Shown: positions 4,643 to 46,325 of the stretch, piece by piece | Layout: the number at the start of each line of letters is the position of its first letter | How positions within the stretch are numbered: the first letter of the stretch is position 1 | Origin: a virus | Taxonomy: Duplodnaviria > Caudoviricetes | Length of the DNA: 51,249 nt | Reading direction: 5' to 3' (one strand) | Virus record (IMG/VR): IMGVR_UViG_3300033145_001039 | Location: 1 to 51,249 of that record | Made by a program: the position numbers and the translations under genes | The notes under the pieces: generated by a model | The model's input: the letters and a program-made list of their open reading frames with translations, nothing else | The model's database searches: none | What the model was told of the DNA's origin: nothing

Positions 4643-7600
4643 TCACACCCCCAATGGAGCCAGGTTGTATCCGCTTGCTACGTTGTTATCTCGCCGTAGT
4701 TCTCTGAGTACAACACGGGCAATTTTCTCATTGCCAATGTGTATATTGAAAATGAACGGTCCTTGATTTTCTTTGCCCATGAATTCGGGCAGCTTGGAGA
4801 GGGGGAGCACGGCTTCTGGCCCCGCTTCCCCTATGCGAGCAAATCCCGGCTTCATTGCAATGCCGCCCCCGGCAAACGTCCCGAGCCATTGGTGAAGTAA
4901 GTATGCTAGACCGATTCCCCCGGCAACTCCTAGAGCAGCGCCCCCTATGGCCGCCCACCCCATAATGGGATTCATCGCGGCCATGGCACCAATCAGAGCC
5001 CCCGCTGCGCCGAACATTGCATAGATCAGTCCCGCCTTCAAAGCGTTTAGCGTACCAATCAGTCTATCCAGTGAGGTGCGTACCTGATCCCAGGATGGAA
5101 GTTTGTCCAGTTCGTCGATGAATCTGTCGAACGCCCCTCGGATGTCATCCCACGAAGGAAAGTTACGAACGACCCAATTCCAGACATCCTTTCCAAGCTT
5201 GAATAATCCCAGGATGAACTCTGTAATATCGGCCGCTATCTGAGGAAGATTTTGAATTACCCAATCTACCCCTTTGGCCAACCACTCGGCTATAGAGTCC
5301 AAACTGACCCCGTGCTTTGCTAATACTTCTCCTACCGTTGCAATTGCACCGGAAATGGATTCGATGATGTCTGGCATCTTGCCGGTTAGCCAATCCCACA
5401 TCCCTACCGCGGCATCCCGGAATGCGGATAAGAGATCAGTCCAGCTATCTATGCCGAATCCTTGCAATAGGTTCATTATGTACTCGGCAATCTTCTTTCC
5501 GACGGCATCTGCCCAGGCAGGAACCTCGGTACCCGCAGTAGTTTCTAGTAGTGGCTCTCCTGGAGTAGCAGCCCCATACCTGATCCGTTCTGCCTTCCAG
5601 CCCACAGGAACATTTAGACTTGAGGCTACTTGTCTATTGACTTCATCTTGTATCCCTAGCCATTCTTTCAGGTGGCGAATGATTGCCACTAGCGGCCACA
5701 AGAATTCACCAAATAGGTCGGCTATGGCTTTCCAAACTGAATCCGTTTCCTTTTGAAGTGCCGAGTATGCCTCAGATTGCTTGATTAAGTTGGCAAAGCT
5801 ACTGGCAAGCTGGCCGATGAATCCCACTAGCATATTGATCCCCTCAGTTAGTAGCTCGACTCCCGAAAGAAAAGTCATCTTGATTGCCGAGGTTATGGCG
5901 GCCATGAGGGCTCCGAAAAGTCCACTAAGCGGCCCCCCAAGGCCCAGGGATAGCGATTGAACCAGACCGGCAATGGCCGAGCCCAACTGCTTGAAACTGG
6001 ATATGTAGAAATCCATGATCTTTTCAAGCTGGGCCTTCTTTTCTTGCAGTGCGGCTATCACAACTGCAAAGACCGTCTGTAGGCCAGTTATAATTGCTTG
6101 CTTGACGTCTCCCTTGAAAAGGCTGTCGATTGCACTGCGAGCTCCAGCTATGGCTGTGGATATAGCTTTCGGAATATCCCCCATGGCACTGAGTGCTTCG
6201 TTTAGAATATCCAGTCCCTCTGCGGCCCAGCCAAACTTTTCCTGGGCTTTCTCCCACCACGTAAGTCCACCCCTAGCAGCTACCTGTAAATCATTGAGGG
6301 CCTTGGCAGCCTTTGTGGTATCCTGGCCGAACTTTTCCATAATTCTAATTTCATCCTCAGCCTCAGAAACAAGCTCATCCAGAAATTTGGCTACTAGAGT
6401 AGGATCAAAAGTTTCGGCCAATTTTCGCAGTTGTTCCCCGGCTCCAGTGGCATCCGCTTTCCAGGTCGCTCTGATCTCATCAAATGCGGACCGCAAGCCC
6501 TCGGGCAGGGTAAATGATTCCTTTATCCTCTCGTACTGTTTCTGCAATTCGGCGGCGAGATCAAATTTTCCCGCTAGCTGTGCCAGTCTAATCCTGTCTT
6601 GCAATGCCGATAGCAGTTGCCGCTCGGCCCCCATTAGCAACTGGAGGACATCTCTCTCGTCAAGTCGCTTGCCGTTGACCTCTGCAAGTGCCTGGGCTTC
6701 TTGGACCAGATCATCGTACATTTGAGCCATCTCGTGGACGGCTTTGGCTGCACCCTCCCAGTCGCCGGTTGCCAGGGCGCCTAGGGCGGGCAAGTCGAAC
6801 TTACGCTTGAATGCCTCTTGCGCCTCTCGGGCTGCCTCCTCGGCTGCCCTTTGGGCTTCACGGGCTGCCTTCTCCCTCTCTCGCCGGGCCTTCTCCGCCT
6901 CCCTCTTTAAGCGCTCGGCCTCTCTCCGTCTCTCTTCCGCTATTTCTTCCGGGGTCTTGCCACTCGTGACCGAATCTATATATTTCTTTAGGACCTCAAC
7001 TGAATTCTGGAGATCTCCCGCGCCGGCCCCGACTCGGTACAATCCCTCGCGAAAGGCCTCTACTCCACCTTTAAGTGCTTGTAGCTCGCCCCATAGCTTT
7101 AGCCACTCACCTACATTTTCCACATCCCCAGTGCGCAGTTTCTCCACAATTTCTCCGGCTCGGGGGATAATATCTCCGATATTTGCCAAAGAAAGGGCGT
7201 TGAGTTGGTCGGCTAGGCTCTGAGCCGCACTCGTAGCATTGCCCAGGGCATTGGCCAGTGCTTGGGCCGCACTTTCTGCTTCCTCTGATGACAGGCCCAG
7301 GCTTTCGAGGATCGGCACCAGCATCTCGTACCGGTTTTCGAGATCTTGAAGCCTTTGGTAGTGATACACAAGCTGTTCAGCATCATCTGCATTGGCCCGC
7401 ATATGATCTTGGACAATACCGATGAATTCTTCTATGGACAGAGTTCCATCATCTAGTTGCTTTATCCACTTATCCCACTGTTTGGCCCATTCCTCTTGAC
7501 GGCTTTTGGTTTGCTCTATCTGAATGGTGTATTCTTTGAGTTGCTCAATTAGCCCCTGGACATCTGTCTCTGATATGCCCGCCCCAGCCCGCATCTCGGC

Positions 7601-9538: not shown

Positions 9539-9849
9539 TCTGGCCCCCTCACTCCTTTAGCCTCACATTCCTTGCTGATCTCCTCAATATATGCTTCACT
9601 GATTGCTAGCGGTTTGGGTGCCGCCTCCATAATCTTTCTTCTGGTATCTTCCCCAGCCATGGCAGGAGGATTTAAAGCCATGTTCCACCTCCCGATTGCA
9701 CCCAATCCCGCAAGCAGATACCCAAACTGCTCATCATCAAGCTCCCATATATCATCTAGGCTGAGTCCGTACGCTGCCGAGACGATCGGGATGAAGTCGA
9801 GGTAGTTGATTTCTTTGGTGGCTTTCTCTCTGATACTTTTGGGTTTCCC
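9535..9849 (-). CDS. Tail assembly chaperone C-terminal (gpT-like) extension reached by -1 frameshift
   Basis: Slippery GGGAAAC (9843-9849) followed by CCCAAAA; -1 frame is open: ...KEINYLDFIPIVSAAYGLSLDDIWELDDEQFGYLL...GVRGPE*. Confidence 0.8.
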   Translation of the reverse strand, partial: GKPKSIREKATKEINYLDFIPIVSAAYGLSLDDIWELDDEQFGYLLAGLGAIGRWNMALNPPAMAGEDTRRKIMEAAPKPLAISEAYIEEISKECEAKGVRGPE

Positions 9850-10451
9850 ACCAACTGTTCTATCATGTCATCTAGAGTTGTAGCGACATCTTGGGCTTCC
9901 TTCTTATCCGGCACATCTACAAGACCCAAAACCCAATGAAACATGGTCTCGATCTTTTGCGCCGGTTCATTCGATAGAAGCCGATCCACGAACTCCTTGT
10001 TCACGACTATTGTCTCGTCCCCTTCCTCTATCTCCATGCCGTATTCCTGTTGGAACGCCAGCGTCAGTGCTTCCAACATGAGATCCCGAGGGGAACGATC
10101 GGGATTGTGGTTAAATGGCTCAAAAATGGCATCTACATACGGTCCCCACTTGGCTATAATGCCTGCCTTGAATCGAGCCATCCATAGCCGTGCCTCATCC
10201 TTGCTCTTGAATTGATCGGGGAGCCCTTCTTCCCTCAACGCACCCAAGACACTATCCACACAGTCCGCAATTGCCATAGCAGCCTTGTTGCGGATTGCGC
10301 CCAAGTTGATTCCGGCCAACTTTTCAAATTGGGCCTGGCGAAGCAAGGACAGACGGGGCAGGATGATTTTCTGCCCCGCCACCTCAAACTCCCGCTTGTG
10401 AGCCTCTTTGGCCCCAGCCTTATAAGCTTTGAGCAAGCTAGACTTGCCCAT
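9756..10451 (-). CDS. Tail assembly chaperone (gpG-like)
   Basis: Position between tail tube and tape measure; contains slippery heptamer near the 3' end. Confidence 0.75.
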   Translation of the reverse strand: MGKSSLLKAYKAGAKEAHKREFEVAGQKIILPRLSLLRQAQFEKLAGINLGAIRNKAAMAIADCVDSVLGALREEGLPDQFKSKDEARLWMARFKAGIIAKWGPYVDAIFEPFNHNPDRSPRDLMLEALTLAFQQEYGMEIEEGDETIVVNKEFVDRLLSNEPAQKIETMFHWVLGLVDVPDKKEAQDVATTLDDMIEQLVGNPKVSERKPPKKSTTSTSSRSSRQRTDSA

Positions 10452-11347
10452 TACGCCTCCTTAGTCGCCCCGATAATGCCGTTTACCTGTAGCGTGATGT
10501 TGCGATTCTGTACTCCTTCGAGCGGAATCGTGTGTTCTACGCCCTTTATATATGCCCAGAACTCAAACCGATCTTTGACGGTCCCCTTCTGTGTGAACAA
10601 AGCCACGAATACTGGGGTATCAGAGTCGATTTCCGGATATTCCTCGGTTGTACCCCAGTACGTAGTCACGGGAATCTCATCCGCCCGCTTGAGTGTCATG
10701 GTAAACGACCTGTATCCATCGTTGGCTTGAGCAGAAGCAAACGTAGTGGTGTCTTGGGCCTCGGCCACCAAGTTGACTCCCAATGTGCCATAGGCCCCCG
10801 CAATCTGCTCCATGAAAGCCACTTCGCAGTTGTCCACGTACCAGGTAAAGGCCGCTGCGGAATAGACCTCGAACTTGGCCTTCTTGGTATCCACGGGTGC
10901 CGATGTAAGGATTGACCATAGCCCCCAATCCCCATCCTCGCCTAGATATGGAGTGGACGATATAGACCGGGTAGCGCTGCCAAGTTCTACATCAGAGGCA
11001 TCTAGGAACGTGACCTTAAGAGTAGCTGTATTGCCACTCGCTAACTTGGCATAGCAGCGTGCAATGCAGTCACTGGCCTCGGTAAGGGCCGAATCGAGTG
11101 TAACTGTTTGCTCTAGTTCAACTCCCAATCCATCGTCCACGATCTTGACGCCTTTGGAGTTAATACCATAACCCCAATCTCCGACCGTAGCTGTACCAGT
11201 ACCAGTATCGCCAATGTTGACCGTCCACCCAGTGAGGTCGCCAGTCTCGAAATCGGGGTTCGTAAGGAGCTGATGCAGCGTGCTCCCTCCTACGGCCACA
11301 CCTATAGATTTATAGATGGCCGCCAAATACCCCTGAATTGCAGTCAC
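10451..11347 (-). CDS. Second tail-tube-like protein with inserted carbohydrate-binding (CBM4/9-like) domain
   Basis: N-terminus MTAIQGY resembles MAGIAGY of the neighbouring tube gene; LLTNPDFETGDLTGW...WYVDNCEV jelly-roll insert; tube-like DTTTF...YRSF...ITLQVNG C-terminus. Confidence 0.6.
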   Translation of the reverse strand: MTAIQGYLAAIYKSIGVAVGGSTLHQLLTNPDFETGDLTGWTVNIGDTGTGTATVGDWGYGINSKGVKIVDDGLGVELEQTVTLDSALTEASDCIARCYAKLASGNTATLKVTFLDASDVELGSATRSISSTPYLGEDGDWGLWSILTSAPVDTKKAKFEVYSAAAFTWYVDNCEVAFMEQIAGAYGTLGVNLVAEAQDTTTFASAQANDGYRSFTMTLKRADEIPVTTYWGTTEEYPEIDSDTPVFVALFTQKGTVKDRFEFWAYIKGVEHTIPLEGVQNRNITLQVNGIIGATKEA

Positions 11348-19534: not shown

Positions 19535-19620
19535 AAAAATTAAGGCCCCCGCATAGCGAGGGCCGTGTGTCTCACGGGCTACCTTGTGCCTATTCTACCA
19601 CAATCTGCGTTACTAGTCAA
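19535..19620 (-). promoter_or_regulatory. sigma70 promoter (TTGACT-17-TGgTAGAAT) + conserved leader + terminator-like hairpin upstream of portal
   Basis: -35 at 19615-19620, -10 at 19592-19597; hairpin GGCCCTCGC-TAT-GCGGGGGCC then TTAATTTTT. Confidence 0.7.
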
Positions 19621-20285
19621 GCCAATTGTCTGTCTTCAAGACGAGAAATTATCTCGGCCATATAAAGAAGTGCCCTTCCATGTCCCTTGCGATCATTTCC
19701 AAAACCGCATAGATCAGCTATTCTTTCAATCTGGCTCATAATGGTTTCTTTCTCGACTTCATCTCTTACGACAAAACTTAAGGTAATGGCACTTGAAGCC
19801 GACCCTTCCTCGGCTTCCGCTGCGACCCGATCCCAGTCAAAGTCAATTAGGTCCCGGACATCATTAAGCTCCTCCATATTCCATGGCACGGTTTCCTCAA
19901 AGTCCTCTAGGCTTATCCCGCCGTCCAAGACAATCTGTAGGGCTTCGGCCTGTTTGATCGGATCTACCTCGAAGTACTCGACAACTTCGTGCGCAATGCG
20001 TATTGCCTCTTCTTGGGAGATTGGTCCATGATCGTAAGCCAGTACCTGTTTGATTCCCAGCTCTTTGAAAGCAATCAGACGATGGTTTCCATCGATCATT
20101 TCATAGCGTCCATCCTCTAATTGACGAACATTACAGTTTTTGATCTGCCCATTGCGGCGGATGTTCTCTGCCAGTTTTCTAGCCTTATCTTCGTCATCTT
20201 GCTTAAAGTTCCAGGGAGCTGGTACTATCTTGTCAATCGAGATCATCTTCAGTTGCGCCGGGAGCTTGGCTTTAGTACTAGACAT
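19617..20285 (-). CDS. ParB/Srx-like N-terminal domain protein
   Basis: IDKIVPAPWNF...LAENIRRNG...YEMIDGNHRL motif. Confidence 0.85.
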   Translation of the reverse strand: MSSTKAKLPAQLKMISIDKIVPAPWNFKQDDEDKARKLAENIRRNGQIKNCNVRQLEDGRYEMIDGNHRLIAFKELGIKQVLAYDHGPISQEEAIRIAHEVVEYFEVDPIKQAEALQIVLDGGISLEDFEETVPWNMEELNDVRDLIDFDWDRVAAEAEEGSASSAITLSFVVRDEVEKETIMSQIERIADLCGFGNDRKGHGRALLYMAEIISRLEDRQLA

Positions 20286-21072
20286 TCCAGTTCACCCCCC
20301 TCTTTTCCCAAAGTCTATTCAAGAACTCTTCCATCTTTAGTAGCTCGCGTACATTGTGGGCATTTCGTTCTAAGTACGCACTACGTTTGATAATACCAGG
20401 CCCGATTCTATTGATTGCTCTTTTGGGGTTTTTCCGTGGAAGAGCAGTCGATATCGTGCCATTCCGAAAACCAAGAACCATGCCAAATCTACCCCCAGCA
20501 TTCCACGTTGTAGCATCGCAGGAGTACGCGGGTACCCACTTAAGAACAGAACAAGAGGAGACTCCAAACAAGTGAATCCTGGTCCCGCGCTCAAAAGCAT
20601 ACTGAATAGGACGTGCGATCCGAGCCAAAAGCCCCTTCCAAGAGTTCTTTTGCTTGCCCACTATTCCACCAATAGCTACATAGTTAAAGTCTCTACAGTA
20701 GTCTTCAAATATTGACCAAGCCCAGCCAGGATGCCATACAGGGACGGGCTTCAGGCCAGCTTTTAGAAGACGATATAGATTAGCATTGGATTCATCAGGA
20801 GAATCAGTATCCAGATTTGCATATGCACTTAGATAAGGCCCTAGCTGGTGCAAGCAGTCTATATAGACCCCAATGTCTATCTGGGTCCCTGACACGCGGG
20901 CACTGTATCCTCCCGAATCCATGAAGATGTCCAATTGAGACGCATCGCGCATAATATTGGCTACTGTCTTGGAATCAGAATAGCAAAAGGAAAAAAGAAG
21001 CCGCGTAACGCCGCATGAACGCAGCAGCTTATAGAATTTACTCGACTCGCCACCCGCAAAGTACAATTTCAT
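20278..21072 (-). CDS. dpdA: TGT-fold transglycosylase, putative DpdA-like 7-deazaguanine DNA insertase
   Basis: MDSGGYS, YANLD, PVPVWH, YVAIGG, IHLFG, SCDATTW motifs; adjacent to the que genes. Confidence 0.75.
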   Translation of the reverse strand: MKLYFAGGESSKFYKLLRSCGVTRLLFSFCYSDSKTVANIMRDASQLDIFMDSGGYSARVSGTQIDIGVYIDCLHQLGPYLSAYANLDTDSPDESNANLYRLLKAGLKPVPVWHPGWAWSIFEDYCRDFNYVAIGGIVGKQKNSWKGLLARIARPIQYAFERGTRIHLFGVSSCSVLKWVPAYSCDATTWNAGGRFGMVLGFRNGTISTALPRKNPKRAINRIGPGIIKRSAYLERNAHNVRELLKMEEFLNRLWEKRGVNWNV

Positions 21073-21992
21073 TGATCACCGTTTCGCGCCACAAATGCAG
21101 CATTGATTCCGCTCTTGTTAAGAGCATTTATAATGTCCTTGGCTGCCACTATAGATATTTCTTCATGGGCTAGCGCATAGCCCCTACAATGGACACGTAC
21201 AGCCTCTCTTATCTTTTTATTAATCAGAGGGTCATTAAGATTCGGCGGGGGAGATAGCCACTTTTCATCCTGGGCAATGCCATTGTTTACAAAGGCAACC
21301 CACCGCCTAAAGCATGCCTGACATGCTCCACAATGGATGCTTTTCCCTTCCTGACACGATAGCGTGTCCAATATGTTTGCTTCGTTGACATTTTTCAGCC
21401 ACCATCTGACTATATCGGTCTTGCTCCATCCCGAAAAAGGAAAGTATACGCGCACAGGATAGGGCCTAGTCCCCAGCACAGCATTCAAAGCTCCCCAGAA
21501 CTGCCAGCTCTTATCACCACCACGGGGCTTGATCTCTCCCTCGGTAGCGGATAGCCAGATCTCCCCACCCTTATCAAGGAGCTCGGAAGCAGCCATTATG
21601 AAAAGCAAGTTACGGCCAGGAATCATATAGCCGTAACGCTCGCGATTATGAGTGAAATCTGAAAAATCCAAGATCAATGGGTCGATCCCCAGCTTTTCAA
21701 GCGCCCTCAATTCAAGATCCTCATAACCGGTCCGAATCTTGCAATATACTGGTATTGCCTCACCCCGGGCTCGTCTCTTCGCCATGAAGTAGGCTGCCGA
21801 GCTATCTAGCCCCCCAGACACAAGAACCACAATATCATGCGCCGGCTGGCCAACTAAAAACTCTACTTCCTGCACCATGTGGGGATGATAGAAAGCTTCT
21901 TGAAGAAGGGTGCCCCAGATTCCAGGAGGCAAAGTTACGGGCTTCCCTTCGGCCACATCCCTCATTAGCTTTAAGATATCTTTAGCGGTCAT
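21069..21992 (-). CDS. queC: 7-cyano-7-deazaguanine synthase
   Basis: SGGLDS PP-loop, IPGRNLLF, K.DIV, SC...HCGACQACFRR. Confidence 0.88.
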   Translation of the reverse strand: MTAKDILKLMRDVAEGKPVTLPPGIWGTLLQEAFYHPHMVQEVEFLVGQPAHDIVVLVSGGLDSSAAYFMAKRRARGEAIPVYCKIRTGYEDLELRALEKLGIDPLILDFSDFTHNRERYGYMIPGRNLLFIMAASELLDKGGEIWLSATEGEIKPRGGDKSWQFWGALNAVLGTRPYPVRVYFPFSGWSKTDIVRWWLKNVNEANILDTLSCQEGKSIHCGACQACFRRWVAFVNNGIAQDEKWLSPPPNLNDPLINKKIREAVRVHCRGYALAHEEISIVAAKDIINALNKSGINAAFVARNGDQ

Positions 21993-22573
21993 TTCATCCC
22001 CATCAGTCGCAAGAACTCCTCACGAGTTGCGGGGTTGTCTTTGAACGCCCCCCTTAGACAAGATGTCACCATCTCGCCTTGAGACTTGGCACCCCGAAAT
22101 CTCATACAGGAATGAACCGCCCTTATAACGACCGCTACGCCATGAGGGGCAAGATTAGGATTGTCAATAGCATCGGCGATTTCTTGGGTAAGCCTTTCCT
22201 GTAGCTGTAGCCTAGCAGCTAACGCATGAACTACCCGTGGGATCTTTGACAATCCCACTACCTTTCCTTCGCTAGGGATATAGGCCACTGACGCAGTTCC
22301 GAAGAAAGGCATCAGATGGTGTTCACATAGAGAGACGAAAGGAATATCCTTGACTACTACCATCTCATCGTATTCGGTACGAAAGATCTTTCCCAGAATC
22401 TCTTTTGGATCTGCGCCGTAGCCCCAGGTCATTTCTTTGAGAGCCTTAACTACCCGGTAAGGAGTCTCGATGAGCCCTTCCCGGGAGACATCCTCGCCCA
22501 GATACTGCAGAAGCCCACTTACGAATTCCTGGGCCTGCTTTGTCGTTATTCCGACCGCCCCTTGATTAGACAC
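21989..22573 (-). CDS. folE: GTP cyclohydrolase I
   Basis: REGLIETPYRV, SLCEHHLMPF, GLSKIPR, LQLQERLT, HSCMRFRG. Confidence 0.96.
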   Translation of the reverse strand: MSNQGAVGITTKQAQEFVSGLLQYLGEDVSREGLIETPYRVVKALKEMTWGYGADPKEILGKIFRTEYDEMVVVKDIPFVSLCEHHLMPFFGTASVAYIPSEGKVVGLSKIPRVVHALAARLQLQERLTQEIADAIDNPNLAPHGVAVVIRAVHSCMRFRGAKSQGEMVTSCLRGAFKDNPATREEFLRLMGMK

Positions 22574-23207
22574 CTCGTGCCTCCTCTCCCCAGATCACTT
22601 TGTGCCACTGAATTTGTATGGCGTAGTTATAGGCAATACACCATTGGGCTAACTCTTTAAAAGGCATCGCTCCCCATACGGGACTAAAGATCGGAAGCGC
22701 CTCAGTGGGGTAGCGCTGTAGAAGTTCGTGAGCATGATCGCATTCCTTTATGGACGAAACCACGAATTTCACATCATCTATTGGCCTCAACTTGACCAGA
22801 TTTTCTAGGCACATCTCATCTTGCATTCCCGAGGCCTCGGTCTTGATGTCCATGACATAGCGTGCACGAAGGGGAACGAGGGCTATACTGCCATTGGTTT
22901 CTATCTCAATGGCTTCTTTCTGAAAGCCCATTCGGTTGAGTTCCATAACCAAAGCCCATAATCCATCCAGTTGGATCATGGGCTCCCCCCCAGTAATACA
23001 GACGCGACTGGCACCGCTTTCGGAAACTCTTTCAACAATCTCCTTTATGGTTAGCTCTTTGCCTCCCCCAAGATCCTGGGCATACTTTGTGTCGCAGTAC
23101 AAGCAGCGAAGATTGCATCCCTGGAAACGCACAAAGAAAGTGGGTCGGCCCGCATAGCGACCCTCTCCTTGAATAGAATAGAACAGTTCATTTATCTTAA
23201 CCTTCAT
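22566..23207 (-). CDS. queE: 7-carboxy-7-deazaguanine synthase (radical SAM)
   Basis: ELFYSIQGEG, GCNLRCLYCDT, ITGGEP, IETNG, QWHK. Confidence 0.95.
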   Translation of the reverse strand: MKVKINELFYSIQGEGRYAGRPTFFVRFQGCNLRCLYCDTKYAQDLGGGKELTIKEIVERVSESGASRVCITGGEPMIQLDGLWALVMELNRMGFQKEAIEIETNGSIALVPLRARYVMDIKTEASGMQDEMCLENLVKLRPIDDVKFVVSSIKECDHAHELLQRYPTEALPIFSPVWGAMPFKELAQWCIAYNYAIQIQWHKVIWGEEARGV

Positions 23208-23541
23208 ATATGACTCCTTGATTGGGCGTCTCCCATAGCTCTATGCGCTCCAAGGCCACAGAATCGGGCAACTTCCATTCAATCTCTCTCCACAGATGGA
23301 AAGCTATTTCTTCGGCCGTGGGATTAGCTATTAAATCATTCAATAGCCTATGGTCAGGGAGGGTACTATTAACAATTGCCTTTATCTCATTGAAGTCCAA
23401 TAGCATGCCGGTTTTCTCGTCGATGTCTCCAGACAGGTAGACTACAAGCTCCCACCTATGCCCATGTAGATTTCCACAGGGACCGTAATAGCCGGGAAGG
23501 TAATGTGCAGCATCAAAACTTGTTCTGTAAACCAGCCCCAC
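23197..23541 (-). CDS. queD: 6-carboxytetrahydropterin synthase
   Basis: FDAAHYL, CGNLHGH, DHRLLN, PTAE, LWET; start may be GTG 23541 or ATG 23565. Confidence 0.95.
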   Translation of the reverse strand: MGLVYRTSFDAAHYLPGYYGPCGNLHGHRWELVVYLSGDIDEKTGMLLDFNEIKAIVNSTLPDHRLLNDLIANPTAEEIAFHLWREIEWKLPDSVALERIELWETPNQGVIYEG

Positions 23542-23580
23542 TCTTCGACCGCCCCGCATAGCCATGATGCCTCCTCTCAC

Positions 23581-23669
23581 AAACAAAGGCCCCCGCCCTT
23601 TCGGACAGGGGCCTGTGTCTCAGGCTATACCTGCTGTCATATTATAGCATTCAAGATGCCCTGGGGCAA
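23581..23669 (-). promoter_or_regulatory. sigma70 promoter (TTGCCC-17-TGcTATAAT) + conserved leader + terminator-like hairpin upstream of queD
   Basis: -35 at 23664-23669, -10 at 23641-23646; hairpin AGGCCCCTGTCC-GAAA-GGGCGGGGGCCT then TTGTTT. Confidence 0.7.
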
Positions 23670-24712: not shown

Positions 24713-24898
24713 ATGACATATAGGTGGAACAATCCGCATGAGTGGTTGGCGTGGTACGTTCAAAATGTACCCGCCCAGGAATTACCCGCAATCATCATGG
24801 ACCTAGCCCGCCATTTGGATGGAGACGTAATCCAAGATCTATACCAAACCGAGATGGAAAAAAGCGGATATTTCGAAGAGCAAAAGGAGGCAGCATGA
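24713..24898 (+). CDS. Hypothetical protein
   Basis: RBS AAGGAGG. Confidence 0.7.
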   Translation: MTYRWNNPHEWLAWYVQNVPAQELPAIIMDLARHLDGDVIQDLYQTEMEKSGYFEEQKEAA

Positions 24899-25023
24899 GC
24901 GATCGGGATAGGGCTTGGGCAAAAGCATTAGAGGTAGCCCAGGAGATCGGATTCCGCGATCCTGGGCAAGCTCACGAGTGGGCATTTGAGCATCTAGAAG
25001 AGTTTATGGAGGAGGAATCATGA
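24895..25023 (+). CDS. Small hypothetical protein
   Basis: ATGA overlaps on both sides; RBS AAGGAGG; MSDRDRAWAK... Confidence 0.6.
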   Translation: MSDRDRAWAKALEVAQEIGFRDPGQAHEWAFEHLEEFMEEES

Positions 25024-25505
25024 GTGCTTTTGTACCAGACAGAAAAGAGATCTGGTATCTTGTGAAGGCCGCGGAAATGTACCGGCCCCGATTGGGGTTT
25101 CACTACTGGAATGGAAAGCTACATAAAATTGCCGACATCAAAGATGCGCTTCGAATAGCGCAAATGCTGTGGGATGAAGCCCTGCATGCTGTCTGTATCC
25201 GCTATCCTGACGGTGAGATCCCCGGGCCAATTGATGAAGACTTCATCATTAGGGAAGAGGACCACGGCCAATATACCTGGTACCACATTGACCCCGTACA
25301 GGTCCTCAAATCCTGCGCGTACTACGAATATCAAGCATGCGAGGATCCCGAGTATCACAAGTCCGAGGCCAGGGCCTTCATTGAGGCTCTAAGACACCGG
25401 GCAATACAAGCCCTGCCAGGGTATGAAGAAGCTATATGGGGAGCTCCGGAACCGTGGGCCTATATGCCCAAAGGAGGGGTGAAATGGGCTACACGCGAGA
25501 AGTGA
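25020..25505 (+). CDS. Hypothetical phage protein
   Basis: RBS GGAGG; LKSCAYYEYQACE...LPGYEEAIW motif. Confidence 0.75.
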   Translation: MSAFVPDRKEIWYLVKAAEMYRPRLGFHYWNGKLHKIADIKDALRIAQMLWDEALHAVCIRYPDGEIPGPIDEDFIIREEDHGQYTWYHIDPVQVLKSCAYYEYQACEDPEYHKSEARAFIEALRHRAIQALPGYEEAIWGAPEPWAYMPKGGVKWATREK

Positions 25506-25714
25506 AGTATTTCAAGCGGATAGGGCCGTACGCCTACGAACCCCATAGCTGTTCCCGAAGGGACATGAAGAGGGAGATGGAGTTCAGGGCAGAGCACCTG
25601 GGCATCGTGGAAGCGTGGTGTCCAGAGTGCCGGGCTGTGGTGGAGCCAGAGCCAGAGCTGAACGCTACCGGCATAGATCATGTGTGTCCGTGGTGCGGAA
25701 CCAGGTTGTACTAA
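25484..25714 (+). CDS. Small zinc-ribbon protein
   Basis: CPEC...CPWCG; RBS AAGGAGG. Confidence 0.65.
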   Translation: MGYTREVKYFKRIGPYAYEPHSCSRRDMKREMEFRAEHLGIVEAWCPECRAVVEPEPELNATGIDHVCPWCGTRLY

Positions 25715-37921: not shown

Positions 37922-38113
37922 CTAGCCATTTTCGCCCTTTTCTCCAAACTCTTTCAAGATATCTGCCAGTTGCTTTGTCTCATCTTTATCGAATGTAATA
38001 TGAAAACCATAATCCGTGTAGACATGCAAATCTCCCAATTTATCCACACGAGCAGTAAATACATCACCCTTGTACTCTCCCACATTGCTTGCTCTCAGAT
38101 CCTGTAAATACAT
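37922..38113 (-). CDS. Small hypothetical protein
   Basis: RBS GAGGAGGT; MYLQDLR... Confidence 0.6.
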   Translation of the reverse strand: MYLQDLRASNVGEYKGDVFTARVDKLGDLHVYTDYGFHITFDKDETKQLADILKEFGEKGENG

Positions 38114-38958
38114 CAGTCCACCTCCTCTTGGTCTTGGCCAATCACAATGCTTCCACCATGAATTACCATCTCGTCTGGCCCATACTCTACCTCCTCTATT
38201 GCCCTTGCTTTCACCGTCCGCACCGGGACGCGTGGAAGTACCCGGAACGTCCTCATACGCTCTTTCGAATAGCGTTGATTGAACTGCTCCCATGCCTCGG
38301 CCGGGGGCAGTTCAGCAAACCATCCCAGTACTTCTTCCAGGTCTCCTTCCGGCACACGTCGCAAAGCACTCGCCACGTCTATATCCACAACCTCTACGGC
38401 ATCCCGCAAGTCTTGTTCTTGAGCCCATCTAGAAGCCCGGATGAACCGCTTTACTTGTGCGCTGGTATAGCCAAGGGCCGCCCCGAGCTCGTAGACATCG
38501 TCCCAACCCACCATGAAGGCCACGTCATGCTCTTTGAACCAGCGGAATATATCGGCGATTAGCCACATGGTAGCCCGGACGCTACGAGCCGCCATCGAAA
38601 GTGTTGCTAACTTTTCCTGGGCGAGCTTGGCATTCTGTCTGTGATAGAACCAGAGTTTTTTATGAGGAACCCTGCGCCCTTCACGGTCCACGACCTCCAG
38701 GCCGGCAGTCAAATCTCCCGGATTCCATCGCACGATCTGGTATGGAATGCCAGGGCCGTGGAGTTTCATGTGACACTGATGACAAACCAAAATGAGGTTG
38801 TCAGGTTGATTGACCTCGGATTCGGGAGAATCCCCACCCATGCCTTGGTGCCTGATATGGGCTATTTCGAGCCCCTCTGTTACAGGCCGATTGTGAAACA
38901 GTTGGCACTCGCCGCCGTCACGTTCCCAAACGTACTTCCGAACTTGCTCGCTGATCAT
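38113..38958 (-). CDS. HNH endonuclease domain fused to a helical/HTH-like C-terminal region
   Basis: VWERDGGEC...EIAHI...NLILVCHQCH..LH. Confidence 0.8.
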   Translation of the reverse strand: MISEQVRKYVWERDGGECQLFHNRPVTEGLEIAHIRHQGMGGDSPESEVNQPDNLILVCHQCHMKLHGPGIPYQIVRWNPGDLTAGLEVVDREGRRVPHKKLWFYHRQNAKLAQEKLATLSMAARSVRATMWLIADIFRWFKEHDVAFMVGWDDVYELGAALGYTSAQVKRFIRASRWAQEQDLRDAVEVVDIDVASALRRVPEGDLEEVLGWFAELPPAEAWEQFNQRYSKERMRTFRVLPRVPVRTVKARAIEEVEYGPDEMVIHGGSIVIGQDQEEVD

Positions 38959-39578: not shown

Positions 39579-40435
39579 AGCCTTGCTACCGCCTGGTTAA
39601 GGTCCTCCTCTATGCGGGCAGCATTTGATAGCCGTTGACCGTTGCCGTTCCTCTTGGAAGGCTTTCCCTTTTCCCTCCACTCTAAGGCCCTCTCATAGTA
39701 TTCATCGTAATGCTCTTTACTGAACAAAGTCGCAGGCCGCAAATAGACCCGCATTTTATCATCATCCCCCCATTCTTGGGCGAAGTAGTCAACGATAAGC
39801 TTGAGATGTTCCTTGGGCTTTCCTTCCTTCAACCTCGCCCGGATATACTTCATCTGCCCGCTGTCGGGGGGGAACCGCCGGCTACATTGCTTGTTTAGAT
39901 ACTCCCGGATTTCTTGAGCATCTTCCTCTAGCTGGGGTCGCCCGCCGGGGCGACACGTAGTGTTTTTTTCTATAGTCTTTACTTTTTCTACGTTTTTGAC
40001 TTCTTCTATATGTACCCTGGAATCCCTACCTAGGGAATCCCTACTTACGGAATCCAGACTTGGGCCTTCCTGTCTCGTTTTCTCCCGCTTTGGAGCCGAA
40101 AGTAATGTGATCTTGAGGCCGATGCGGTGTCCTTTCTCATCTCGTTCTTCCTCAACTTCTATGAGGCCCAACTGTTTTAATTTTTCTCTGGCCTTGACTG
40201 CGGTTTCGTAGGTGAGCCCCGAGTAAGTACAGATAGCCCGCATCCCCCCGCGAAGCTCCGCAGTTCTAATGTCGCTCTGTCTCCCATGGTCTGACACTAT
40301 CTCGGTCAAGGCAAGATAAAATGAACGCATAGCAACCAACATATGCCCTGTATAGTGGTCTCGCATAAGACGCAAGGCTTCTTTCTCTTGCCAACACCAT
40401 GTTGCTACCCGCAGATCACGTACTTTTACATCCAT
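39560..40435 (-). CDS. Phage replication initiator (O-like)
   Basis: N-terminal winged HTH, low-complexity linker with iterons, C-terminal YLN...IRARLKEG...YLRPATLF; upstream of DnaC-like gene. Confidence 0.85.
   Translation of the reverse strand: MDVKVRDLRVATWCWQEKEALRLMRDHYTGHMLVAMRSFYLALTEIVSDHGRQSDIRTAELRGGMRAICTYSGLTYETAVKAREKLKQLGLIEVEEERDEKGHRIGLKITLLSAPKREKTRQEGPSLDSVSRDSLGRDSRVHIEEVKNVEKVKTIEKNTTCRPGGRPQLEEDAQEIREYLNKQCSRRFPPDSGQMKYIRARLKEGKPKEHLKLIVDYFAQEWGDDDKMRVYLRPATLFSKEHYDEYYERALEWREKGKPSKRNGNGQRLSNAARIEEDLNQAVARLCGRGT
39961..40063. promoter_or_regulatory. Putative replication origin: three 15-bp iterons plus T-rich tract inside the initiator gene
   Basis: GGAATCCCTACCTAG GGAATCCCTACTTAC GGAATCCAGACTTGG (40019-40063) next to T-rich 39961-40010. 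Confidence 0.7.
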
Positions 40436-40731: not shown

Positions 40732-40938
40732 TATCTACCCCCTTTCTTGACAGCGGCCCCCGGGGGCAGTACAATCACAATGCCGCCGGGGCGTCGCCGC
40801 CCAGTGTCGCATAAGCTCCCCGCCGGCCTGGAGCCGCCAACTCCAGTCCGTTCCGATTCCCCGCCTCCCTGAATTGGGAGGCCGTTTGCCATCTGCATTA
40901 TAACATGCTGCACGGTACAAATTCAACTCCCGCTGGTC

Positions 40939-41181
40939 TCATAATGCCTTCCCTATAAAGCGCTCAAAGCCAAGCTTCTTCCAGCATTCTTCACACAAGA
41001 CGACGTTGTAGAAGACCCAGCTTCCTTCATGTACATCTATCTCCTCCCTGCTATCGGGCCTGTTGAAAACCACCCGTTTGCTTATAGCCTTGGGCGCATT
41101 ACGACTGATTTCGAACTCGTAGTACACTTCCTTCGCCCTGTCGATCTCCTTCTTGCACTCGTCACAGATGTACTTGATCAT
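40939..41181 (-). CDS. Small zinc-binding protein directly downstream of the repeat array
   Basis: YICDECKKEI...LCEECW; RBS AGGAGGTGA. Confidence 0.75.
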   Translation of the reverse strand: MIKYICDECKKEIDRAKEVYYEFEISRNAPKAISKRVVFNRPDSREEIDVHEGSWVFYNVVLCEECWKKLGFERFIGKAL

Positions 41182-41198
41182 TTTTCACCTCCTAACTC

Positions 41199-41639
41199 TG
41201 GCTCGCTCGGTTCCCCTGGTTCCCTTGACCACTCTGGCTCGCTTCCTAGGCGTGGGTTTCTATTCGTTCACGGCTCGCTAGCCTCCCTCGGTTTTCTCTG
41301 TATTATTGGCTCGCTAATCCTTTCCGGTTTTCTTTAGGACCTCGGCTCGCTCCCCCACGTCGGGTTTCTGCTTTTGAGTGGCTCGCTTCGCGACAGCGGG
41401 TTTCTGTGGCGGCCTAGCTCGCTTCCTGCTATCGGATTTCTGGGGGCAAACGGCTCGCTTTCGCCCGCTGGTTTTCTCTCTTCCCAGGGCTCGCTGCCAA
41501 GAACTGGTTTTCTCTCTCTCCTTGGCTTGCTCACCTATCGCGGGTTGCTCTGTGCCGATGGCTCGCTGTGCCTTTTCGGTTTCCTTCCTTGCTCTGGCTC
41601 GCTGCGGTCTGATGGGTTTCTCCAGAATTCCGGCTCGCC
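41199..41639 (-). repeat. TIGR-like dual-repeat guide RNA array: 12 units of 36 nt, AGCGAGCCR-N9-AGAAA(A/C)CCR-N9
   Basis: GGCTCGCT (or a 1-mismatch variant) recurs on + at 41200 and every 36 bp to 41632, with GG(T/G)TTTCT at the half-period; intervening 9-mers are all different. Confidence 0.85.
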
Positions 41640-41692
41640 CTCTTCCAAACGGCTGGCGACCCGGGAAGCGGTCAAACTCCCCGGGCCGGAAG

Positions 41693-41804
41693 TGGCACCA
41701 CCCCAGCGGATTCGAACCGCCGACCGCAACGGTGGCGGAGGTTAAACCACCGCGCTGCCGGGTTGGGACCCCGGCTTGGCCCCCTACCTTGGGTCTAGGA
41801 TGGC
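41693..41804 (-). tRNA. Atypical 112-nt tRNA-like RNA (8-bp acceptor/5-bp T stem, 6-bp anticodon stem, anticodon CCC, long variable arm, G73-CCA)
   Basis: GCCATCCT/GGGGTGGT acceptor, GGCGG-TTCGAAT-CCGCT T arm, GCCGGG-GTCCCAA-CCCGGC, encoded CCA; D arm weak. Confidence 0.6.
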
Positions 41805-41818
41805 AGTTGTAGGCCATG

Positions 41819-42247
41819 TCAGAACGGGACTCCGTTCTTAGCCCGCTCTTGGGCACCCATAAGGGACTTGCCTACTCCAGGAGCCAAGTATTCTTCGACC
41901 TTCGGTCTGGTCTTACCTTCGTAGGTGTCCTTCTTTACCTTGATGTAGATTGTCTTATCGGGGAGTTCTGCACAACACCGATCTGCCAGATCTTGCAAGC
42001 CCTCGATCTCGTCCTCTGTGCTACCCCCGAGGGCTACCCACACCTGAACCCATTTCCAGGCTGCTTTTGCATTGACCGGGAGGTTGTCCCATATCATGGC
42101 TCCTTCCCAGCCCCCATTATTGACGACCTCCATCTGAAGTGAAACCATGGGATCGCCCGCTTTAGTTTTGCCTGTCGGATCTAAATCTTTGACCCGTACT
42201 TCGTAGATCCCAGGGTCAAGCACACTTATCAAGTCACCCACTTTCAT
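41819..42247 (-). CDS. DUF669-like single-stranded DNA-binding protein
   Basis: LDPGIYEVRV...TKAGDPM...IWDNL...acidic/aromatic C-terminus VPF; follows Sak4-like ATPase. Confidence 0.75.
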   Translation of the reverse strand: MKVGDLISVLDPGIYEVRVKDLDPTGKTKAGDPMVSLQMEVVNNGGWEGAMIWDNLPVNAKAAWKWVQVWVALGGSTEDEIEGLQDLADRCCAELPDKTIYIKVKKDTYEGKTRPKVEEYLAPGVGKSLMGAQERAKNGVPF

Positions 42248-45143: not shown

Positions 45144-46325
45144 GTGACTATTCCCCGCAGATAAAGCAAGGGGCTTCTAGGGCCTTGCAGCCCAGGCTCT
45201 GTAGTCCCAGAGCCAATATGTTTAATGCCGCATTATGGTCACGATCCAAACGAAGACCACAATGAGGACATTCATGAATACGAACTGAGAGATCCTTGGG
45301 AACGATAGCTCCGCACTGGGAGCATCTCTGGGTAGTCCCGCGTGGATCAACTTCGATTACACGACGACCAGCCTCTTCCGCTTTGTACATCGTGAACTGC
45401 CGAAGCTGTCGCCACGCAGCATCACCGATGCTCTTGTTCAAGCTGTGCCAGTTCCCATTTTGCATCTTTTGAATCTCCAGTTTTTCAAAAGCCAGCAATT
45501 GAAATTCATTTACCAGACGACGGCTTAGCTTGTGAGCAAAGTCGCGGCGCTTGTTTGTAATGCGCTCATGGATGCGGGCCACTACCTTGCGCCGCTTCTT
45601 GTATTCAGGGGTTCCTTTTTTAGCTTGGCTGAACTTGCGTTGGGCTTTAGCCAATGCCTTCTCTTCCCGGCGGAAGAACCGTGGATTCTCAATCTGCTCG
45701 CCTGTCGAAAGAGTGGCAAAGCTCTCCAAGCCAACATCTATCCCAACCGCGTTAGGAACAGGGGGCAATCTTTTCGGTTTGACTTCTACTGAGAAGCAAG
45801 CGAACCACTTGCCGGTAGCAGTGCGCCGAATAGTCAGGGTCTTGATTTGTCCTTCGATGGGCCGGTGAAGCCTGATTTTAATGTCCCCGATCTTAGAAAG
45901 ACGCAGCTTTCCCTCCTCAGTGAGTTTGAATCCCGACTGGGGATAGGTGAAGCTATCATATCGCCCCTTTCCTTTGAAACGGGGATAACCGGCTTTCCCG
46001 TTCTTGGCTTTAAGCCTGCGAAAGAATCCTTGAAAGGCCAAGTCAACACGAGTACAAACCTCTTGAAGCACCTGAGAATAGACATCATTGAGCTGGGGAT
46101 ATTCCTCTTTAAGTTGTGGTAACATCTTAATAGTATCATAGCGTGCAAGGGATTCCCGCCGCTCAGACCAGGCTTCGCGCCTTCTAGCTAATATTTCATT
46201 ATAGACAAACCGACAGGAGTCCAAAGTCTGCTCCAGTCGAGCACGCTGGCCTTTCGTAGGAAATAACCGATATTTAAATGTTCTCCTCACAGTTATATTA
46301 TATGACATTTATGCGGCGGCGTCAA
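45144..46325 (-). mobile_element. tnpB-only (IS1341-like) element without tnpA
   Basis: Right-end-like GAAGCCCCTTGC-TTTATCT-GCGGGGAATAGTCAC ending TCAC at 45144; left side TTGACG-17-TATAAT; left boundary uncertain. Confidence 0.7.
45148..46290 (-). CDS. tnpB: RNA-guided endonuclease TnpB (IS200/IS605 family)
   Basis: FKYRLFPT, GYPRFK, GIDVG (RuvC-I), AFEKL (RuvC-II), CSQC/CPHC, DRDHNAALNI (RuvC-III); probable leaderless GTG at 46290. Confidence 0.95.
   Translation of the reverse strand: MRRTFKYRLFPTKGQRARLEQTLDSCRFVYNEILARRREAWSERRESLARYDTIKMLPQLKEEYPQLNDVYSQVLQEVCTRVDLAFQGFFRRLKAKNGKAGYPRFKGKGRYDSFTYPQSGFKLTEEGKLRLSKIGDIKIRLHRPIEGQIKTLTIRRTATGKWFACFSVEVKPKRLPPVPNAVGIDVGLESFATLSTGEQIENPRFFRREEKALAKAQRKFSQAKKGTPEYKKRRKVVARIHERITNKRRDFAHKLSRRLVNEFQLLAFEKLEIQKMQNGNWHSLNKSIGDAAWRQLRQFTMYKAEEAGRRVIEVDPRGTTQRCSQCGAIVPKDLSVRIHECPHCGLRLDRDHNAALNILALGLQSLGCKALEAPCFICGE

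Follow-up and report, generated by a model that had tools for sequence, protein, structure and literature searches.

The virus record IMGVR_UViG_3300033145_001039 (IMG/VR), a tailed-phage genome of 51,249 bp that is referred to here in its entirety as the window, carries at positions 41199..41639 of its minus strand a dual-repeat array of the tandem interspaced guide RNA (TIGR) type, the guide array of TIGR-Tas systems, while encoding no protein that can be recognised as Tas. Three of the twelve guides in this array match, in the geometry derived for TIGR targeting, sites that flank the corresponding slot in the genome of the closest sibling phage, and the carrier's own alleles of these sites have diverged. 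The interpretation favoured here, to which we assign a probability of about 0.5, is that the array forms part of a trans-dependent guide cassette that is aimed at sibling phages and uses a Tas protein made elsewhere.

Read along the minus strand from position 41639, each of the 12 units of 36 nt consists of an edge repeat (AGCGAGCCR), a 9-nt spacer A, a loop repeat (AG-NNNN-CCR) and a 9-nt spacer B, and the array is ended by a thirteenth, closing edge repeat at 41207-41199 on the same strand. The phasing is exact, at 9+9+9+9 nt over all 12 units with zero indels. Autocorrelation of positions 41199-41639 yields peaks at periods of 36 (0.573) and 72 (0.55), a repeat finder returns a single family of 11 copies with every spacing equal to 36, and a sliding scan of the whole window places the array at the top of all periodicities between 28 and 49 nt (0.59 at period 36); Tandem Repeats Finder leaves the array unreported because just half of each unit repeats. 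Within the edge repeats, 3 of 104 positions deviate from AGCGAGCC, and AG and CC are each present in 12 of the 13 copies. The loop repeats carry AG at the start and CC at positions 7-8 in 12 of 12 cases, their four inner positions being variable, and of 24 repeats tallied, 12 edge and 12 loop, 23 have A or G as their ninth base. An earlier note on this DNA, made from the letters alone, had described a 36-bp period over 12 units; minus-strand reading, autocorrelation and repeat finding all bear this out, and the spacer pairs listed in that note are exactly those read here.

At the ends of the array, the first edge repeat is altered at base 1, and the last, which is full-length, leads into a ribosome-binding site and a gene. 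The ends that are typical of, without being defining for, TIGR arrays, namely a 5'-truncated first edge, a 3'-truncated last edge and a terminator, are absent. All three reading frames are interrupted within the array, one of them being open across 9 units, and neither ARAGORN nor Rfam (in gathering and E-value modes) reports anything in the array and its leader. On the RNA strand the spacers are rich in purines, A+G amounting to 64% in the window array and to 60% in 1,559 units of the repeat family; were spacer A of each unit to be joined in the target to the reverse complement of spacer B, this composition would give a left half-target rich in purines and a right half-target rich in pyrimidines.

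Dual-repeat TIGR arrays are described as successions of 36-nt units in which both edge and loop repeats begin with a box D and finish with a box C (Faure et al., 2025; PMC12045711). According to the same report, the box motifs may diverge among loci yet covary between edge and loop, the edge repeat provides one extra base pair, and the interior of the loop is A-rich, with no clear sequence-specific contact to TasR in the account given there (PMC12045711). The window array displays all of these features, with AG as its box D. Direct links to tas genes are found in three relatives, L008, L009 and L012, which were recovered by way of an HNH gene discussed below. Specifically, each has, on the gene strand, an array whose edge repeat is the same as in the window and whose loop repeat is nearly identical, and directly after the array stands a 278-aa gene whose product matches the solved TasR (9mty, E 8e-24) and TasH (21kl, 9W03/9W04, E 2e-16). 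The presence of a tas gene beside the array in relatives, which the earlier note had proposed looking for, is therefore found in all three of these loci. The L012 array, of 20 units (5506-6645 plus the opposite strand), is itself open in three frames, with open reading frames (ORFs) of 379, 246 and 191 aa, so that gene callers may annotate TIGR arrays as repetitive proteins.

The repeat family extends well beyond these relatives. At least 147 IMG/VR stretches show the pattern edge-N10-loop-N10-edge, as do 105 GTDB stretches, the latter from candidate phyla radiation (CPR) bacteria, Dehalococcoidia, spirochaetes, several archaeal phyla and others, and the GTDB distribution places the family widely among sediment and groundwater lineages. 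A Tas profile was built from 45 of the best 150 representatives, with 4,489 representatives at E <= 0.001, and a frame matching this profile lies within 2 kb of the array in 61 of 80 IMG/VR loci, sharing the strand of the array in 61 of 61. Among GTDB loci such a frame lies near the array in 44 of 80, many of the others being a single unit or having cut flanks. The IS110 C-terminal family (PF02371) is matched by 22 of 45 such Tas frames, and one has a weak HNH match too.

Variation at the ninth repeat base was gauged against 1,530 distinct units collected from other loci (loop start AG, edge with at most one mismatch to AGCGAGCC), in which the edge repeat has A in 80% and G in 16% and the loop repeat A in 82% and G in 15%. 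Some tas-linked arrays are mostly G or mixed at this base, and the A/G mix of the window array is on the unusual side, not unique. No window spacer is shared with other arrays, the best likeness still differing at 5-7 of 18 positions. Related loci also show periodicities of 30, 33 and 45 nt, which were rejected as iterons or coding repeats, not arrays, and one further candidate locus, L092, is a false array. Taken together, these data identify the element as a genuine TIGR guide-RNA array of the dual-repeat type, with repeats of the AGCGAGCC / AG-N4-CC family. In many phages and prokaryotes this family is served by TasA-type proteins and also by at least one candidate Tas that bears an HNH domain. 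The TIGR identity proposed in the earlier note thus stands, since the same edge and loop repeats adjoin bona fide tas genes in many phages; its observation that the repeats start with AG and not with UG was likewise correct, and the concern that it attached to this difference is resolved, AG being the form that box D takes in the AGCGAGCC repeat family.

The genome that carries the array is complete: the window is the whole 51,249-bp virus record, has direct terminal repeats and is rated 100% by CheckV. Its Pfam matches are those of a tailed phage (capsid, portal, protease, tape measure, terminase), with others to a 7-deazaguanine gene cluster, ThyX, an RNA ligase, RusA and a TnpB gene, and a recombination/replication module surrounds the array. 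Among the 76 window ORFs, Pfam at E <= 0.01 detects neither Nop (PF01798) nor the IS110 C-terminal family (PF02371). The best tblastn match of L012 TasA against the window has an E of 1, and the best hmmsearch match (--max) of the 45-sequence Tas profile to all six-frame ORFs of the window has an E of 6.6; the same profile recovers 4 of 4 positive-control loci at 4e-54 to 3e-112. An hhalign comparison of the 176 window frames of at least 90 aa reaches at best a probability of 13% over 13 columns, with controls at 100%, and a Tas search of the window's own virus record gives no match. The array is consequently an orphan at the sequence-profile level, no recognisable Tas/Nop protein being encoded, which upholds the claim to this effect in the earlier note on the four counts of Pfam, tblastn, the Tas hidden Markov model and hhalign, and for a complete genome.

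Two other nuclease genes of the phage were considered as possible partners. A 281-aa HNH protein (38113-38958, minus strand) was examined as a hidden TasH and judged unlikely to be one, as it combines an HNH with a ParB/KorB-like domain and has no Tas match by sequence or Foldseek. In architecture, it consists of an N-terminal HNH, the ParB/KorB-like domain and a small C-terminal beta domain. A model folded from a 14-sequence alignment (predicted local distance difference test score, pLDDT, 85.6) gives Foldseek matches in the HNH part only, and VIA-align recovers the HNH with a Z of 7 and the ParB/KorB-like DNA-binding domain with a Z of ~6. This protein is probably not the partner of the array, because it occurs in array-less phages and also beside a true TasA in L012. 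Its conservation, at 43-95% identity, extends to 13 metagenomic proteins and 18 IMG/VR loci, always in the replication module. The full TnpB gene (45148-46308, minus strand), with HTH_OrfB_IS605, OrfB_IS605 and Cas12f-like TNB domains, was set aside as the effector of the array, since TnpB is without a Nop-like domain and uses its own RNA. It represents a second, unrelated family of RNA-guided nucleases in the genome, situated in the early region 3.5 kb from the array.

Arrays of this family without a nearby tas are not confined to the window. Nineteen IMG/VR loci lack a nearby Tas match; one, L032, is on a contig that also carries tas-bearing loci, and the other 18 are distributed over 15 records. 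When these whole records were searched for Tas, 4 proved to carry tas farther off and the other 11 had none. Among the tas-less records, G003, G005, G009 and G013 are at least 93% complete, and the first three carry real arrays of 2-7 units; the supposed array of G013 is a coding repeat. Effector-less arrays of the AGCGAGCC repeat family are thus a recurrent minority. In G001 (the record of L023), a Tas-profile match at 24751-25527 is split by one in-frame TGA and lies ~10 kb from a small array of the AGCGAGCC repeat family; it could be a broken tas or contain a recoded stop.

Within the window, the array and the gene that follows it make up a variable cassette of 770 bp (40883..41652, minus strand), which sits in a recombination slot of the early/replication region. 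G017 (the L001 contig), the relative closest to the window, is a genome of 50,326 bp with terminal repeats that is rated 100% complete, and it has neither array nor tas; it is the only close relative found in IMG/VR, one 2.6-kb metagenome contig having been found in addition. Compared with the window, G017 shows nucleotide identities of 85% in the SSB-like (single-stranded DNA-binding protein-like) gene, 79% in a structured leader and 94% in the downstream region, and between the same borders its slot (10004-10600) holds 597 other bases, among them a second element resembling a tRNA and a cysteine-rich gene of 128 aa. In contigs from two runs of one study, position 40882 is separated from 41653 or 41660 by 372 or 1738 other bases, and the slot is accordingly a swap site with at least four different contents. 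Contigs from two further studies span the zinc-ribbon gene of the cassette and the last units of the array, and differ at 8-10 of ~230-270 aligned bases. The centre of the array (~41378-41608) is without contig cover in the four sequencing runs compared, and the runs listed as containing this DNA include no RNA run.

The zinc-ribbon gene (40939..41181, minus strand) encodes an ORFan of 80 aa with four cysteines. It starts 17 nt past the last edge repeat, with a ribosome-binding site between the two, and occupies the position that tasA takes in L008, L009 and L012. The protein has zero relatives in IMG/VR and one 99% identical copy only in a set of 5.8 billion proteins, and its look-alikes in the Atlas are unnamed small viral proteins.

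The case for targeting rests on the geometry with which TIGR guides engage DNA. Spacer A is reported to pair with one strand and spacer B with the adjacent stretch of the other strand, and the cut positions, which are counted from the nucleotide that pairs with spacer base 5, leave 8-nt 3' overhangs (Faure et al., 2025; PMC12045711). As 3' overhangs are reported, it can be derived that one strand of the target reads, from 5' to 3', spacer A followed by the reverse complement of spacer B, an order abbreviated here as A + rc(B); on the same derivation, the opposite order of half-sites would yield 5' overhangs. The guides were scanned against the whole of G017, the masked window and the tas-bearing genome G016, with gaps of 0-4 and in six half-site orders. 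In the A + rc(B) order, 3 matches with at most 2 mismatches were obtained, all of them in G017, as compared with 0 in the opposite order and 1 distinct match among the controls. A search of this kind, with spacer A joined to the reverse complement of spacer B, had been suggested in the earlier note, and it is this search that returned the three significant matches in the closest sibling.

The guide of unit 3 (41532..41567, minus strand) has a site with 1 mismatch at 9672-9689 of G017, inside the SSB gene, and one with 2 mismatches in the SSB allele of metagenome contig L166. That of unit 10 (41280..41315, minus strand) matches 10592-10609 with 2 mismatches, at the right border of the G017 slot, where the site overlaps a TATAAT hexamer as well as the first hairpin arm. 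Unit 12 (41208..41243, minus strand) finds both of its 9-nt halves perfectly matched at 10674-10692, where a small ORF begins, the two half-sites being separated by one additional base. Together the G017 sites extend over 1,021 bp of that 50,326-bp genome and flank the slot at 10004-10600, lying ~320 bp to its left (unit 3), at its right border (unit 10) and 74 bp beyond it (unit 12). When bases were shuffled within spacers, three or more guides matched at <=2 mismatches in 1 of 73,198 trials (1.4e-5); any perfect match arose at a frequency of 6.8e-5 and any match with at most 1 mismatch at 0.003. Deliberate mispairing of spacers from different units (A_i + rc(B_j)) gave a match at <=2 mismatches in 1 of 132 combinations.

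The window contains no match to its own guides at <=2 mismatches. The carrier's allele of the unit-3 site (41967-41984, minus strand), in its SSB gene, differs from the guide at 4 of 18 positions. The counterpart of the unit-10 site (40875..40901, minus strand) is interrupted by extra bases, seen as a 9-nt alignment gap at 40887-40896, just after a predicted -10 TATAAT hexamer, and that of the unit-12 site (40788..40810, minus strand) is a rewritten patch beside more than 100 nt that are identical to the sibling.

In the reading of the array as a trans-dependent guide cassette, its transcript would be made with the early operon, and this transcript would be bound, and cut into 36-nt tigRNAs, by a Tas of the AGCGAGCC repeat family that the host, a resident element or a co-infecting phage provides. 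In dual-repeat systems, processing is reported to require Tas itself (Faure et al., 2025; PMC12045711; Xu et al., 2026; 10.64898/2026.09.09.750476). The resulting ribonucleoproteins (RNPs) would bind sibling genomes next to the slot, with at least 3 of the 12 guides aimed at siblings that hold a different cassette, and because the alleles of the carrier have diverged at all three sites, the carrier would be spared. The consequence for the rival would vary with the kind of Tas. TasA-type, nuclease-free Tas proteins are reported to repress transcription (Xu et al., 2026; 10.64898/2026.09.09.750476), and a protein of this type might, through the two right-hand sites, silence or block the replication operon of the rival; a nuclease Tas could cut beside the slot and thereby favour copying of the cassette into the rival in a homing-like manner. 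The anatomy of the array, its place in the repeat family, the lack of tas, the borders of the cassette and the matches with their geometry are shown by the data; that the array is transcribed and processed, where its Tas comes from and what happens to rivals are inferred. By extension, the effector-less TIGR cassette could be an RNA-guided selfish or warfare element, with guides to both flanks of the slot in cassette-less siblings, a borrowed Tas and rewritten sites in the carrier, a more specific proposition that we advance only tentatively. Use of a Tas in trans, as the earlier note had surmised, is the reading favoured here, the source of that Tas being our supposition; the companion ideas in that note, of a decoy or of a different effector, gained no support of their own.

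A number of observations weigh against a cassette directed at siblings. With respect to the matches, 9 of the 12 guides have none in the single sibling genome compared, the unit-12 match requires a 1-nt gap between half-sites for which there is no known tolerance, and the unit-10 match carries 2 mismatches; moreover, a simple promoter scan calls a promoter at the window's unit-10 counterpart and none in L001. When 1,571 guides were compared with ~1 Mb of sequence at <=1 mismatch, the A + rc(B) order gave 8 matches, the opposite order 3 and the four control orders 0-5, which amounts to no clear general excess, and the targeting pattern is therefore shown for this phage only. Self-targets in G003, G005, G009 and the tas-bearing G016 are likewise none above controls. 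With respect to the absence of tas, the search across all ORFs was made by sequence profiles only, structure having been predicted for one protein. Additionally, the closest array-bearing relatives have tasA exactly where the phage has an unrelated ORFan gene, as a replacement or loss event would leave, and a recent loss of tas would leave identical sibling matches.

These last points lead directly to the foremost alternative, namely that the array is a recent relic. Under this account, which we regard as possible but somewhat doubtful, an ancestor possessed array and tasA arranged as in L012, recombination in the slot swapped tasA for the zinc-ribbon gene, and what remains is an inert, as yet undecayed array whose matches record past activity. 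The location of tasA directly after the array in L008, L009 and L012, where the phage has its ORFan gene, is what such a history predicts, as is a slot that serves as a swap site for at least four contents, and the loop repeats and the ninth repeat base do vary more in the window than in L012. Against it stand 12 units without indels that retain box C and box D in all loops and have changed at 3 of 104 edge positions. The variation that exists falls where Tas is not reported, in the account of Faure et al. (PMC12045711), to read sequence, and the A/G mix at the ninth base is also found in tas-linked arrays. Furthermore, the cassette junction is present in two other studies, and G003, G005 and G009, all of them viral records with a completeness of 93% or more, have small arrays in the absence of tas.

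The remaining explanations rank below that of a relic. If the transcript acted as a decoy or sponge, soaking up the Tas of the host or of a rival element much as RNA anti-CRISPRs do, the content of the guides would be irrelevant. Intact Tas-binding motifs in a genome without the effector gene would suit such a role, and the wide distribution of the repeat family makes a matching Tas in the host community plausible, but a sponge has no need of 12 different guides and does not predict three sibling matches in functional geometry beside the slot, and we consider it improbable. Slightly more improbable still is self-regulation, whereby the guides, with a Tas in trans, would time the phage's own replication operon through the local promoter and genes. 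Two of the three sites do lie in the regulatory region just downstream of the cassette, and nuclease-free Tas proteins are described as transcriptional repressors (Xu et al., 2026; 10.64898/2026.09.09.750476); the window nevertheless has no match at <=2 mismatches to any guide, the matching alleles being those of the sibling and not of the carrier. That the array is no guide RNA at all, and instead represents repetitive coding sequence or a set of DNA iterons bound by a replication or partition protein, is suggested by the nearby replication initiator gene and by the frame that is open over 9 units. This we hold to be highly improbable, given that all three frames are interrupted, that the repeats are those of tas-linked TIGR arrays lying on the tas strand in 61 of 61 loci, and that the probable origin iterons of relatives differ, with 11-nt units inside the initiator gene.

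The surroundings of the cassette contain several further elements. Directly upstream of it lies a tRNA-like leader (41693..41804, minus strand) made up of a 7-bp acceptor-like stem, an anticodon-like arm, a long extra arm, a GGTTCGAATCC T-arm and an encoded CCA. This oversized element of ~112 nt is conserved between the window (41693-41804, minus strand), L001 (7381-7495) and L166 (2461-2590). Its anticodon-like arm has a 6-bp stem, with compensatory changes, and a 7-nt loop, reading CCC in the window and L166 and CGT in L001; the T-arm is GGTTCGA(A/G)TCC, and CCA is encoded in the window and L001. The tRNA-like element in the slot of the sibling (L001 7531-7700), with T-arm GCCGGTTCAAATCCGGC and 3' GCGCCA, differs from that of the window. 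The leader might supply RNase P/Z processing sites for the array transcript. Between leader and array lies a GC-rich hairpin (41657..41692, minus strand), kept in L001 and L166 and without a U tail, and upstream of the leader stands the DUF669/SSB-like gene (41819..42247, minus strand). On the minus strand from this gene to the zinc-ribbon gene, no sigma-70-like promoter or terminator is called, and the simplest assumption is that the array is probably co-transcribed with the surrounding minus-strand operon. A sigma-70-like promoter (TTGAAT-18-TATAAT plus TG; 40897..40926, minus strand), which is a consensus match only, precedes the downstream replication operon.

Elsewhere in the genome, the replication-initiator gene contains tandem repeats of 15-18 nt (39965-40055), as compared with 11-nt repeats in relatives (L004 665-800, L007 1-165), and these are probably origin iterons. 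A 7-deazaguanine DNA modification cluster at 19617-23586 (minus strand) comprises a QueD-like PTPS, a radical-SAM QueE-like protein, GTP cyclohydrolase I and a QueC-like protein, together with a tRNA-guanine transglycosylase-like protein (phrog_887) and a ParB_N protein.

The array is of a kind already published, and the features not found in the literature searched are its occurrence in a complete genome without tas, its location in a cassette within a variable slot, and targets at the flanks of that slot in a sibling. No paper on orphan TIGR arrays was encountered in that literature, bioRxiv supplements, which may list arrays or targets, lying outside the search. The published TIGRFinder search is described as confined to the surroundings of known tas loci (Xu et al., 2026; 10.64898/2026.09.09.750476), and tas-less arrays therefore lie outside it. 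In the two reports, the natural targets and biological role of TIGR guides are treated as undetermined (Faure et al., 2025; PMC12045711; Xu et al., 2026; 10.64898/2026.09.09.750476). If the reading of a sibling-directed cassette is correct, it would furnish the first natural targets and a biological role for these guides, and would mean that TIGR arrays and Tas circulate and function separately, mirroring the array-less branch of Tas. In this single complete genome, a tas-less array is joined to three statistically supported sites in a sibling, with the diverged alleles of the carrier as built-in negative controls, so that three questions become directly testable: what TIGR guides aim at, whether an array can function in trans, and whether it leads to silencing or to spread in the manner of homing.

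Free-standing homing endonuclease cassettes of phages provide one precedent for such an arrangement: they occupy a variable slot, the sites that they recognise flank the cassette-less alleles, and the alleles of the carrier are diverged and thereby protected. By analogy, the cassette described here might behave in a comparable way, with the differences that recognition would be by RNA guides, that the nuclease is not encoded and that a TasA would only bind.

Comparison with the TasA-type dual-repeat TIGR-Tas systems, as these are described in two reports (PMC12045711; 10.64898/2026.09.09.750476), reveals extensive similarity in the array itself. Shared are the 36-nt units, the alternation of edge and loop repeats, the two 9-nt spacers, a box D and a box C at the ends of both repeats, the position on the sense strand of the operon and the A + rc(B) geometry. 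In contrast to those systems, the phage has a complete genome without tas, a zinc-ribbon ORFan at the tas position and no terminator after the array, and its box D is AG instead of UG, with A or G as the ninth repeat base.

In its presumed logic the cassette recalls the cas-less mini-CRISPR arrays borne by viruses (Medvedeva et al., 2019; PMC6858448). As described there, these too are effector-less viral arrays whose guides match close relatives, and they are presumed to exclude siblings by means of someone else's effector. The array of the phage differs from them in belonging to another RNA-guided system, that of Nop-domain Tas, in its split 9+9 guides and in the clustering of its targets beside its own slot. 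Lacking an effector, matching its relatives and leaving its carrier unmatched, the array would appear to belong to the same functional class of effector-less viral guide arrays directed against siblings. The array-less branch of Tas reported from compact viral genomes (Xu et al., 2026; 10.64898/2026.09.09.750476) is the mirror image of this arrangement, a protein without an array where the phage has an array without a protein; in both, array and effector are separated, suggesting that one genome may supply the guides and another the effector.

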